Shown here: positions 1 through 3,000 of the stretch, piece by piece | Layout: each line of letters starts with the position of its first letter | Numbering within the stretch: the stretch's first letter is position 1 | Source: a virus | Lineage: Duplodnaviria > Heunggongvirae > Uroviricota > Caudoviricetes | IMG/VR virus record: IMGVR_UViG_2740892233_000020 | Length of the DNA: 33,085 nucleotides | Strand: one strand, 5' to 3' | Made by a program: the position numbers

Positions 1-3000
1 ATGTGGGTCAATAAGTATATTGACGATTGCACTGATGAGGATTTAAACGATCGTGACTTTATTGCATCAGTTGTTGACCGGGCTATTTTTCATTTCGCGA
101 TTAATAGTATATGTAATCTTGGGGATAATAAAGATGCAATGCCCATTGAACAATGTACTTTTGATGTAGAAAATAAGAATGACCTTCCCTCCACGGTTCA
201 GCTATTTTATGAGGAATCTAAGGATAATGAACCTTTAGCGAATATACATTTTCAAGCAATAGGTTCTGGTTTTTTAACGTTTGTTAATGCCTGCCAGGAA
301 CATGATGACAACAGCTTAAAATTATTTGCTTCGCTGTTAATTTCACTTTCATATTCTAGTGCCTACGCAGATTTATCAGAAACAGTGTATATTAATGAAA
401 ATAATGAGAGCTACCTGAAAGCTCAGTTTGAAAAATTATCTCAACGTGATATGAAGAAGTACCTGGGAGAGATGAAGCGTCTGGCTGATGGGGGAGAAAT
501 GAATTTTGATGGCTATCTGGATAAGATGTCACATCTGGTGAATGAAGGAACGCTCGATCCTGATATTTTAAGCAAAATGCGAGATGCTGCACCACAATTA
601 ATTAGCTTCGCGAAGTCGTTTGACCCAACCTCAAAGGAAGAGATTAAAATACTTACAGACACTTCTAAATTAATTTATGATTTGTTCGGGGTTAAATCGG
701 AGAAATAATATGTGAAGTTCTTCGATAGTATGGAAGGCATTATATAAAAGGACCCAATATTTATTGGGTTCTTTTTTCTCTATCAATGCTATTAGCAGGG
801 AGATATATCACCAGAGTTTAATGTGTGATTTTTTATTTATCGTCGAACCTGGATTGTTTATCATTGGCCTTAACAAAGTTAACGGCTAATAAGATTATTT
901 CCATCACTTCGTGAGAGCTTCATGCCTTGAGAGGATCTCAATTTTCTTTTGCAATGAGACAGGCGCTTCCTGTTGTTATGGTATAGTACCCCGCTATTGA
1001 GCCTCCTGAATAGTGATGCTGAATAACATAACCCCATGATATATCGATAAAATAATCTCTACATTTGAAAATGCACGGTAATTCTGAAATGCAAAAAATC
1101 AACCAAACCAGCGCAATGCCTGAAAAAACTGACGTTCACTGGAGTGGTCGGTTTAGCGTTGCACCAATGCTCGATAGGATGTACCGTTTTTGAAAAACAA
1201 GTAGTTATACACTTTGTGGGAGCCTATTGGGAACCCGGTGTTTTCATTTCAAGGTGTAATCCATGCCGGGCATCAGAATGAGATATAATGAGATTTTTAG
1301 TGTTCCGCTTGAGAGTCTATGATGCTTACCCTAGACGAGATAGGTCAATCTGTACGTAACAATATCCAGTTGATTATTGATCATGTCGGCTTACCTCTTG
1401 CTGTTGGTCCGCTCAGTGATGATGATTACAAGATTCTGTGTGGTGGCTATGGTGAGCTTGAATGGGACTATGCGTTAAGCACCTATGGCAACTCCAGAGA
1501 AAAGTATGAGTTCTGCATAAAACTTGTTCAGCAAGGTCGGGTTCAGGGAATACCATCAGGAGCAGCAATTTGTGTTTATGGGGTTGAAGAAAACATCTTT
1601 CGTATCCATATGATCGAAAGGTTTTCTAGAGAAGATGAATCTCACCCATTGAAAGGGCGCATGGTTTTACTCACTCTTATGAGTGCTTTTATATTTTGTA
1701 AAGCTGTTGAATGTAAAGTTGTCCACATTGTAGAGCCAGTACCAGAACTGGTGCAGTATTACGAGTCTTTTGGTTTCCGCATGGAACAGTGCGGTTATGT
1801 GATGTCTGCAGTCATTGATGAGCTGCAGGATATCTTTCTTAAATTTGCTCAGTAGGTATAGACGAGAAGGGTCTACAAATTGTAGGATACCCGTCCAGAT
1901 TACCTTAAAGGTACATCTATGGCAGTCGTTTTGTGCTTAAACTACTAAGAAACGATGTCACCAATCGACATGATCGATTGGCATAAGTTAGCGAAACAAG
2001 CTAGCTTTAAAGAGAGGGTTAGAGACGCCTTTACTGTCTCGGGAGTTTTCTATGAAAGATCAAAAAGCAACCAAGCCACAGGTTAAGTTCGACACAATGA
2101 AAGCATTCGCAGGTATGGGTGCTGCTGTTGAAGTTCTGATGAAGGCTGCTCCTAATGCGTTCACTCACGCTACTGTCTCTGGTAAAGAGCAGCAGGGTAA
2201 GCTTCGTCGTCGCAAAGCAGCATGATCATAGCTGGTGCTTTTTGAAAACCCGCCTTTAGGCGGGTTTTTTCTTTAGTGATGTTCTTTGCCCTTCTGTTTG
2301 CTTGTTCTGACCTGTTCCCACTCGATACGTCCTTCTTCTCGTCTTTTGTCTATGTATTCCGCAAGATCCTGAATATTGATGCAACGTTTTGCTTTTTGTG
2401 ATGTGCCGATGCGATATGTTGGAACGGGCAACTTACAAGCGTTTGCTTTTGCTTCTGCCGTGGCTGGACTCATGCCAAAGTACTTTTGGCTAACTGCTGA
2501 GAGTTCAATGTTAGGGGTATTGAATTCAGCCATCAGTAAAAACAAGGTGTTCATAATTTTCTCCATCAAAACCGGCTGCACCCGGGAAAATCATAATTCT
2601 GTGCTGGTGGCAGGAATTAATTTCTGCCAGATAGCGGAAACATATTTTGCCTGATGACGGGCATCAGCCAGGGCGTTGTGCCGTTCGCCATCGAAAGGCA
2701 TGTCCATTTTGGGGTCGAATCCGATGGAACGCCCAAGCGTAACGATCGTGCGTACATCGTGGTCATTCCAGTATGCCCACGGGCAGATTTGTCCTGCTCG
2801 CTCATAAGCTCCACGTAAAATTACGTTGTCGAAGGTGGCTCCGTTACCCCAGACTTTTAAATATTTCGTATTGTCTGCGTGCCGGTTAATGAAATGATTT
2901 AGTTCTGAGAGAGCATCGCGGATCGACAAAGTATCATCAATACAGATTGCAGCTCGTGCTTCAGGGCTTTGTTTCAACCACCACAGGATGGTATCGCCGT

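Follow-up and report, generated by a model that had tools for sequence, protein, structure and literature searches.

What do three plus-strand open reading frames (ORFs) at the left end of a phage genome represent when they face an excisionase gene with no integrase behind it? The DNA in question is IMG/VR record IMGVR_UViG_2740892233_000020 (Caudoviricetes), and "the window" refers to this whole stretch of 33,085 nt. All three frames are present: ORF1 (1-708, 235 aa), ORF2 (1319-1855, 178 aa; also termed ORF178), and ORF3 (2052-2225, 57 aa; also termed ORF57). However, a preliminary description that grouped them as one cargo unit did not hold; a host/phage boundary at 1167-1174 splits the block, and ORF3 is kept whichever cassette precedes it. 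By its match to Escherichia coli K-12, ORF1 is not phage DNA but host yjbM, which forms the 3' portion of the split yjbL/yjbM gene. On the evidence of the loci compared, ORF2, which has a GNAT fold, and ORF3 are a very consistently paired unit that is mobile between siphovirus, myovirus, and P2-like backbones. We tentatively propose that this GNAT/ORF57 pair may act as a toxin-antitoxin (TA)-like addiction or anti-phage module.

A homologue of ORF57 was located downstream of the GNAT gene on the same strand, 77-200 nt away, at all 112 GNAT loci fetched, many of which are near-identical E. coli prophages, with 46 unique intergenic sequences in total. The pair was also present in phage Eeyore (PP925821), with a spacer of approximately 250 nt. 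The Eeyore ORF57 homologue (hidden Markov model [HMM] E 1e-10) and its terminator lie at 4792-4953 of the fetched stretch and are unannotated; the depositors called tiny ORFs in the spacer. ORF57 homologues followed the GNAT gene at loci of Shewanella, Photorhabdus, Edwardsiella, Serratia, and Brenneria, and on a metagenome contig. Relative to the window copies, GNAT and ORF57 lost identity in step (GNAT/ORF57: 65/69, 60/59, 64/66, 58/53, 48/40, 40/27, and 44/28%). Remote members of the GNAT family (profile E 1e-36, 1e-21, and 2e-15) were followed by an ORF of 48-60 aa. The ORF57 profile recognized one of these three small ORFs (E 1e-8) and not the other two (E 0.02 and 0.14); both of the latter encode basic proteins with, on visual inspection, a common layout of a helix and then F...E-x-x-G-K/R. 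On a 96-kb plasmid of Enterobacter kobei (3992-4828 of the fetched stretch), a GNAT copy with 27% identity is followed by a basic 57-aa ORF that the ORF57 profile did not recognize. We also considered a 54-aa ORF located 120 nt upstream of the GNAT homologue on a 3-kb plasmid of Morganella morganii (NZ_CP139443) as an ORF57-like partner. This was not established: the two proteins share only a 12-residue C-terminal motif (E..GRRRV.EA), with a BLASTP E value of 0.001 from a single comparison and a probability of 0.8% in a profile comparison.

The pair occupied different positions in different phages. It was found at the dusA attachment site in E. coli, in Shewanella, and on the metagenome contig, where it lies on the int side; a place next to int is also among the contexts recorded. 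In Brenneria, it directly follows a cI-type repressor gene. In Serratia, Edwardsiella, Enterobacter, and phage Eeyore, it lies between the antiterminator gene Q or a DUF968 gene and the lysis genes. The site after cI is the position of rexAB, and that between Q and the lysis genes is the position of stx. Other copies were inserted between P2 gpA and the portal gene in Edwardsiella and inside the tail cluster of a myovirus in Photorhabdus.

The preliminary description had recognized none of the encoded proteins. In profile and structure searches, ORF178 proved to have a GNAT fold and no match in Pfam, NCBIfam (E up to 1), or PADLOC-DB 2.0 (E up to 1). A word-based search found 51 relatives, all from Enterobacterales except one (Shewanella) where the organism was named, and the family HMM matched only 91 among 1.84 billion representative sequences. 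Essentially none of the 58 remote relatives (from these 91) compared with Pfam gave a match, a weak hit of one protein to Acetyltransf_1 apart. Searches of PDB sequences with two family profiles returned nothing meaningful beyond a marginal best match to nourseothricin acetyltransferase (E 0.006). The structural matches include the toxins KacT, AtaT, and TacT; SpeG and the nourseothricin and glycylthricin acetyltransferases were among the Foldseek matches. The viral fold library BFVD gave generic GNATs only, and the structural scores singled out no subfamily. ORF178 is thus a member of the GNAT superfamily by its predicted fold only, with no curated sequence model. The family has an invariant H109-P-L-x-G113-x-M in the loop between beta4 and alpha3, which departs from the canonical acetyl-CoA motif A (Q/R-x-x-G-x-G/A), together with invariant E100 and Y148. 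In the model, these residues are placed where GNATs bind acetyl-CoA and catalyse, and they may have such a role here. The family is acidic throughout (isoelectric point [pI] 4.3-5.5).

The small partner proteins are mostly strongly basic (pI 9.4-11.6; one remote member, 7.9). ORF57 has a ratio of nonsynonymous to synonymous substitutions (dN/dS) of 0.05-0.33, which indicates purifying selection and a real gene. Its AlphaFold2 model consists of one helix (residues 15-32) with the remainder disordered, at low confidence (pLDDT 60). No Pfam domain and no NCBIfam match were found for ORF57, nor a PADLOC match at E up to 1; its only assignment was to phrog_2741. We observed that the synonymous divergence of ORF57 (pS 0.08-0.39) was 2-7 times below that of the adjacent GNAT gene (pS 0.62-0.96) in the same locus pairs of closer (enterobacterial) relatives, pairs from different phage backbones included. 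This may reflect codon bias, use of ORF57 as a recombination anchor, or an overlapping constraint at the nucleotide level.

Presence and absence were then compared across E. coli, and the ORF2 cassette was variable among prophages. The phage part was matched by 652 of 5426 complete E. coli genomes, 357 of which carry the whole GNAT/ORF57 block, O157:H7 and O111 strains included. The remaining genomes keep only the P' arm of the phage attachment site (1176-1244) and/or ORF57 with xis (2039-2300). The alternative content of the slot, in E. coli prophages and in phages SKA5 and Lys8385Vzw, is a protein with a Panacea domain (PF13274, E 2e-19) and an ORF of 128-139 aa; by its domain content, it is a TA pair of the PanA/PanT type. 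Such PanAT pairs have been validated (Kurata et al. 2022, PMC8832971). The breakpoints between the two alleles are sharp, the left one at 1236, just past the motif GGGAACC, and the right one at 2041/2042, inside the Shine-Dalgarno (SD) sequence of ORF57. ORF57 and its terminator are identical between the GNAT and PanAT alleles save one codon. The 80 IMG/VR loci found through ORF57 comprised 61 with the GNAT allele and 19 with the PanAT allele. PADLOC gave no match for the proteins of the PanAT allele at E up to 1. The preliminary description had suspected variable cargo close to the attachment site, and this was correct for ORF2, which adjoins the P' arm and is replaced by PanA/PanT elsewhere, but not for ORF1. 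In E. coli 2013C-3264, a gene for a CoiA-like nuclease (PF06054) lies between the ORF57 terminator and xis (3826-4860 of the fetched stretch); this prophage family thus has a second site for cargo.

Between the GNAT gene and ORF57 lies a long spacer with conserved features (Table 1). In a 27-sequence alignment of this region, 94.4% of the cells in its four hairpins (1901-1913, 1961-1981, 1986-2006, and 2022-2040) formed pairs, compared with 21-43% when the partners were slid. Cells changed on both sides numbered 32 against 11.7 +/- 2.7 in shuffles (0/500), a significance that is overstated by the relatedness of the sequences. One-sided changes often yielded G.U pairs, which fits an RNA transcribed from the plus strand. 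The sequence TTACC-N5-GGTAA showed almost no variation and no compensatory change, the pattern expected of a protein-binding site. A TAnnAT box was present within the first 70 nt in 40 of the 46 unique spacers, often as an extended -10 element (TGnTAnnAT). Upstream of the GNAT start, comparison by eye of 15 upstream regions from different contexts revealed TATAAT or TACAAT/TAAAAT/TAAGAT in about a dozen of them, mostly at a distance of 30-50 nt. A consensus promoter scan made no call at 1284-1289, where a good -35 element is absent; the promoter activity of this box (P1) is thus putative. We infer that transcription of the unit may start at two promoters and that ORF57 may have a structured leader. 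No Rfam family matched the spacer, and positions 1-2700 gave only sub-threshold matches to terminator hairpins. We do not regard a 43-aa ORF at 1955-2086, or the other short ORFs that overlap here, as genes, on account of frame-breaking indels and a spacer of only 77-104 nt in some relatives.

The unit ends in an intrinsic terminator. The preliminary description had reported that each ORF is followed by a terminator or hairpin, and the terminator scan agreed for ORF1 (746-775) and ORF3 (2244-2269), while ORF2 is followed by the hairpin-rich intergenic region. A terminator placed by that description at 2246-2272 is real on the plus strand; however, calling it bidirectional was generous, since the scan flagged the plus strand only and the stem on the minus strand has no more than approximately 4 T residues after it. 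A GC-rich hairpin with a T run followed the small ORF in most contexts examined, and the terminator AAAACCCGCC..GGCGGGTTTTTT recurred in closer relatives, including loci without xis. The scan found no terminator between the start of host dusA and the GNAT gene, and transcription from the host dusA promoter may therefore reach the unit in lysogens.

Table 1. Features at the left end of the window.
Feature	Positions	Strand	Basis and remarks
Host gene yjbM (DUF2713)	1-708	+	Pfam PF10897, E 3e-165, positions 1-235 of 235; K-12 b4048
Intrinsic terminator of host yjbM	746-775	+	Terminator scan: 13-bp stem and T run; inside the K-12-matching stretch
Orphaned 5' fragment of host dusA	1071-1193	+	35 host codons, 5 phage-derived codons, and stop
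attL crossover core ATGCTCGA	1167-1174		Host-type single-nucleotide polymorphisms to the left, phage-type sequence to the right
attP P' arm	1175-1235		Present in both cassette alleles; includes GGGAACC (1229-1235)
Exchangeable cassette (promoter-like box, GNAT gene, intergenic region)	1236-2041	+	Alignment breakpoints
TATAAT, -10-like box of putative cassette promoter P1	1284-1289	+	By-eye comparison of contexts
GNAT-fold protein (ORF2/ORF178)	1322-1855	+	177 aa from the second ATG (178 aa from 1319); phrog_4350, unknown function; pI 4.8
Conserved structured intergenic region, 196 nt	1856-2051	+	Fold -58.2 kcal/mol, z = -3.18 vs shuffles
Promoter-like TAGACG N18 TAGGAT	1859-1864 and 1883-1888	+	Within the intergenic region
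Palindrome stem TACC(N5)GGTA	1901-1913		Invariant; TTACC..GGTAA at 1900-1914
Spacer hairpins	1961-1981, 1986-2006, 2022-2040	+	
SD sequence of ORF57 (GGGAG)	2041-2045	+	
Small basic protein (ORF3/ORF57)	2052-2225	+	pI 10.5; phrog_2741, unknown function
Intrinsic terminator of the two-gene unit	2244-2269	+	Terminator scan; adjoins the 3' end of convergent xis
Excisionase (PrtN family), first gene of the minus-strand early operon	2273-2581	-	PF11112, E 4e-23; phrog_1300, excisionase

Among known systems, the pair most invites comparison with type II TA systems that combine a GNAT toxin and a ribbon-helix-helix (RHH) antitoxin (TacAT, AtaRT, KacAT, and ItaRT). Like these, it consists of a GNAT-fold enzyme of approximately 175 aa and a small protein on mobile elements, the toxins KacT, AtaT, and TacT are among its structural matches, and in some loci the enzyme is lost and the small partner kept. 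However, the window pair has no sequence similarity to these systems and no Pfam model, and the enzyme gene comes first, not second. GNAT/RHH systems have an upstream antitoxin with an RHH domain; ORF57 has no such domain and is encoded downstream, behind a structured spacer of 77-250 nt. GNAT/RHH toxins acetylate aminoacyl-tRNA and are neutralized by an antitoxin that binds them directly. The enzyme here is strongly acidic, and aminoacyl-tRNA appears unlikely as its substrate. PanA/PanT shares only the slot, from the P' arm to the SD sequence of ORF57 in sister prophages; this is allelic alternation, not homology, and the PanAT accessions found here differ from the validated E. coli pair. Neither ORF178 nor ORF57 corresponds to an anti-phage defence model of PADLOC-DB 2.0.

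The cassette also resembles a phage moron, a concept of Juhala and Hendrix that reportedly denotes an autonomous promoter-gene-terminator insertion in lambdoid phages. Lambda rexAB, bor, and lom are examples. The unit has its own -10-like box and terminator, has a lower GC content than its flanks, varies among similar phages, and lies at classic positions (next to the attachment site, after cI, and between Q and lysis). It differs in having two genes, with an elaborate and conserved spacer and probably a second promoter between them, and in recurring in siphovirus, myovirus, and P2-like backbones. As judged from these features, the GNAT/ORF57 cassette fits the moron definition, with the promoter part of that fit being putative.

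How might the two proteins work together? The reading that we prefer, quite possible and somewhat short of probable, is that GNAT/ORF57 is a TA-like addiction or anti-phage module with a make-up unlike that of the GNAT/RHH systems. We speculate that lysogens would transcribe the unit from its own promoter(s), possibly with read-through from dusA. The acidic acetyltransferase would be an active, potentially harmful effector that acetylates a basic protein or another cationic target. ORF57, a basic and disordered protein with a single helix and an E-x-x-G-K/R tail that is conserved, would hold the enzyme in check by binding to it. The main argument for this TA-like reading is the direction of loss: the GNAT gene was replaced (PanAT allele) or frameshifted (locus L038) with ORF57 intact, and the reverse never occurred among the 112 loci, as would be expected if the enzyme were the harmful member of the pair. 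The complementary charge of the acidic GNAT and its basic partner, the exclusion or defence positions of the pair, and a TA pair as the alternative in the same slot lend further support. A disordered partner with one helix also recalls the antitoxin segments that plug GNAT toxins. The inverse assignment, in which ORF57 is the toxin and GNAT the antitoxin, was considered; the hundreds of genomes that carry ORF57 alone speak against it.

Several observations weigh against this proposal. The enzyme-first order, the gap of 77-250 nt, and an ORF57 without a DNA-binding domain are unlike GNAT/RHH pairs, and neither protein was matched by PADLOC at E up to 1. To our knowledge, all characterized GNAT toxins target tRNA, an unlikely ligand for an acidic enzyme. 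ORF57 persists nearly identical behind PanT, and may thus have a GNAT-independent function or be the main player. The consistency of the pairing is tempered by the redundancy of the 112 loci, and the GNAT homologue on the M. morganii plasmid has no recognizable downstream partner. A more specific version of the proposal is a new conflict-module family, whether an acetylation-based TA or a system against phages or competitors, in which a strongly acidic acetyltransferase acts on a basic protein and is checked by a histone-tail-like pseudo-substrate under leader-RNA control. The module would move among moron and defence hotspots in at least 6 phage backbones; we regard this version as rather unlikely.

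The loss of the enzyme with retention of ORF57 equally fits a different arrangement, in which ORF57 itself acts on a target in the host or phage and the GNAT is an accessory that modifies ORF57, by N-terminal or lysine acetylation, or tunes it. The two genes would then be a lysogenic-conversion pair rather than a TA system; we consider this unlikely. It is less likely still, and in our view improbable, that the GNAT detoxifies a cationic small molecule, such as an aminoglycoside- or streptothricin-like antibiotic, a polyamine, or a peptide-nucleotide microcin, with ORF57 as a regulator or an unrelated gene. The strong acidity of ORF178 suits such an enzyme, and aminoglycoside, streptothricin, and spermidine acetyltransferases are likewise acidic. 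Nourseothricin acetyltransferase is the sole sequence-level PDB signal of the family profile, and it, SpeG, and the glycylthricin enzyme recur among the structural matches. However, the E value of that signal is marginal, and NCBIfam, which includes the NCBI resistance-gene HMMs, gave no match at E up to 1. Detoxification also gives no reason why, throughout the family, a small basic partner should be obligatory and a structured leader present, and alternation with a TA cassette in the same slot suggests conflict systems.

If ORF57 instead belonged to the phage backbone as part of the integration/excision module, perhaps as an accessory factor beside xis, the GNAT alone would be cargo and their adjacency incidental. 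The near-identity of ORF57, terminator, and xis behind either cassette in the E. coli dusA phages and the much lower synonymous divergence of ORF57 than of the GNAT gene favour this account. However, ORF57 follows the GNAT gene without int or xis nearby in the tail cluster, between Q and lysis, between P2 gpA and the portal gene, and after cI, and the identities of the two proteins co-vary; we hold this account to be very unlikely. The model of the preliminary description, in which the three ORFs are one low-GC prophage cargo block, drew on their shared plus strand, their fairly AT-rich composition, and their position opposite the early operon. Low GC was correct for ORF1 (36.3%) and ORF2 (41.7%), but not for ORF3 (47.7%, against 48.6% in the rest of the window). 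The model is refuted, and almost certainly wrong, because the DNA is of the K-12 chromosomal type up to 1174, approximately 81% of complete E. coli genomes match part of the left end, mostly in this host stretch, and phage mEp460 matches only from 1068.

The integration site explains the arrangement at this end of the window. By comparison with K-12 and mEp460, the left end is the junction of an mEp460-type prophage that was inserted into host dusA, at its 5' end, via a dusA-specific tyrosine integrase. In a four-way alignment of the window, K-12 dusA, and the attP sites of mEp460 and SKA5, host-type polymorphisms extended to 1166 and phage-type sequence began at 1175; the blastn match to K-12 stops exactly at 1174. 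The match to phage mEp460 (NC_019716) spans 1068-3179 of the window at 97.5% identity, with nothing before 1068. The attB and attP sites share the identical 8-bp core and partial matches on both sides. The dusA fragment, aligned with K-12 DusA, translates as MHGNSEMQKINQTSAMPEKTDVHWSGRFSVAPMLD (MHGNSE...APMLD) from the host, followed by RMYRF and the stop, and RefSeq annotates a partial tRNA-dihydrouridine synthase here. GGGAACC/GGTTCCC is present in both attP arms (1229-1235 of the window; in the P arm of mEp460, within 3916-4000 of the fetched mEp460 stretch), and these copies are probably arm-type integrase binding sites. We noted that the left cassette breakpoint falls immediately after the P' copy of GGGAACC. 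Some E. coli genomes retain the P' arm alone.

The excisionase-like gene convergent on the block was borne out as a gene of the PrtN/excisionase family at 2273-2581, and gp25 of mEp460 is annotated as an excisionase. A gene for an Rv2179c-like exonuclease comes after it in the minus-strand operon. The absence of an integrase gene after xis was likewise confirmed, tblastn having found no integrase homologue anywhere in the 33,085-nt window. The gene order in mEp460 is int (gp22, minus strand), the phage dusA-like 5' end, the core, ORF178, ORF57, and xis; the phage-borne dusA 5' end (MHDNPEIQKTNQTS...APMLD) directly precedes the core, next to int. Since int lies beyond attP in mEp460, it is expected at the far end of the prophage beside the restored dusA, outside the window. 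Its location on the other side of attP thus explains its absence after xis, which is a feature of dusA phages and no anomaly.

Prophages and islands with a dusA-specific integrase (DAI) insert into the 5' end of dusA, leave the original 5' end orphaned, and bring a replacement 5' end next to the tyrosine integrase gene (Farrugia et al. 2015, PMC4482086). They are bordered by semi-conserved 21-bp direct repeats (attL/attR), and their cargo is highly diverse; the GNAT/ORF57 pair is absent from that description (PMC4482086). The window agrees in that its identity to K-12 ends at dusA codon 35 and is followed by phage sequence, leaving an orphan dusA fragment; mEp460 has its own dusA 5' end beside int, and the window covers the attL end only. 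The junction is, as far as the alignments indicate, an ordinary member of the dusA-integrating prophages, and nothing essential differs.

On the host side, positions 1-1174 were 99.74% identical to K-12 b4048-b4049, from the yjbM start through the dusA promoter region to dusA codon 35. Part of a query spanning 1-2300 was matched by 4380 of the 5426 E. coli genomes (~81%), chiefly in the host stretch and with or without the prophage, while 80% or more of it was covered in only 332. The preliminary description had let ORF1 run off the window edge; however, it has an ATG at base 1 and a full-length DUF2713 match (1-235 of 235). It is nonetheless part of a disrupted gene: RefSeq gives the split yjbL/yjbM as a frameshifted DUF2713 pseudogene that starts approximately 280 nt upstream. 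Strain IR53017 (L009:759-1763) has an intact DUF2713 protein of 334 aa, residues 85-334 of which are only 43% identical to the window YjbM. The low-GC host locus beside dusA is thus itself highly polymorphic.

We also noted features of the record itself. It contains eleven runs of exactly 10 N (5006-5015, 5322-5331, 5847-5856, 6314-6323, 10887-10896, 12508-12517, 12708-12717, 29292-29301, 31803-31812, 32379-32388, and 32649-32658), several of which are bordered by direct duplicates of 76-178 nt with 96-99% identity. Together, they look like unmerged contig overlaps of a draft scaffold, and ORFs that span N runs are artificially duplicated, such as the yfdR-like gene at 4464-5252. The early region has long direct repeats with 92-97% identity (3952-4127/6138-6313, 5706-5846/6325-6465, and 4232-4341/12719-12828), which could be duplicated Ea22-like segments or the result of a scaffold mixing two related prophages.

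A literature search, RefSeq accessions included, found no paper that mentions the GNAT or ORF57 proteins, and neither GNAT nor acetyltransferase appears in the NetFlax TA paper or in two recent papers on defence discovery. Textbook features account for the host gene, the dusA site, and the absence of an integrase gene here; the uncharacterized part of the locus is the widespread GNAT/ORF57 cassette. Since phage mEp460 is isolated and culturable, the cassette may be tested cheaply. If our proposal is correct, the repertoire of TA and defence systems would gain a GNAT module whose target is not tRNA and whose small partner is of a new type, along with a conserved leader RNA.

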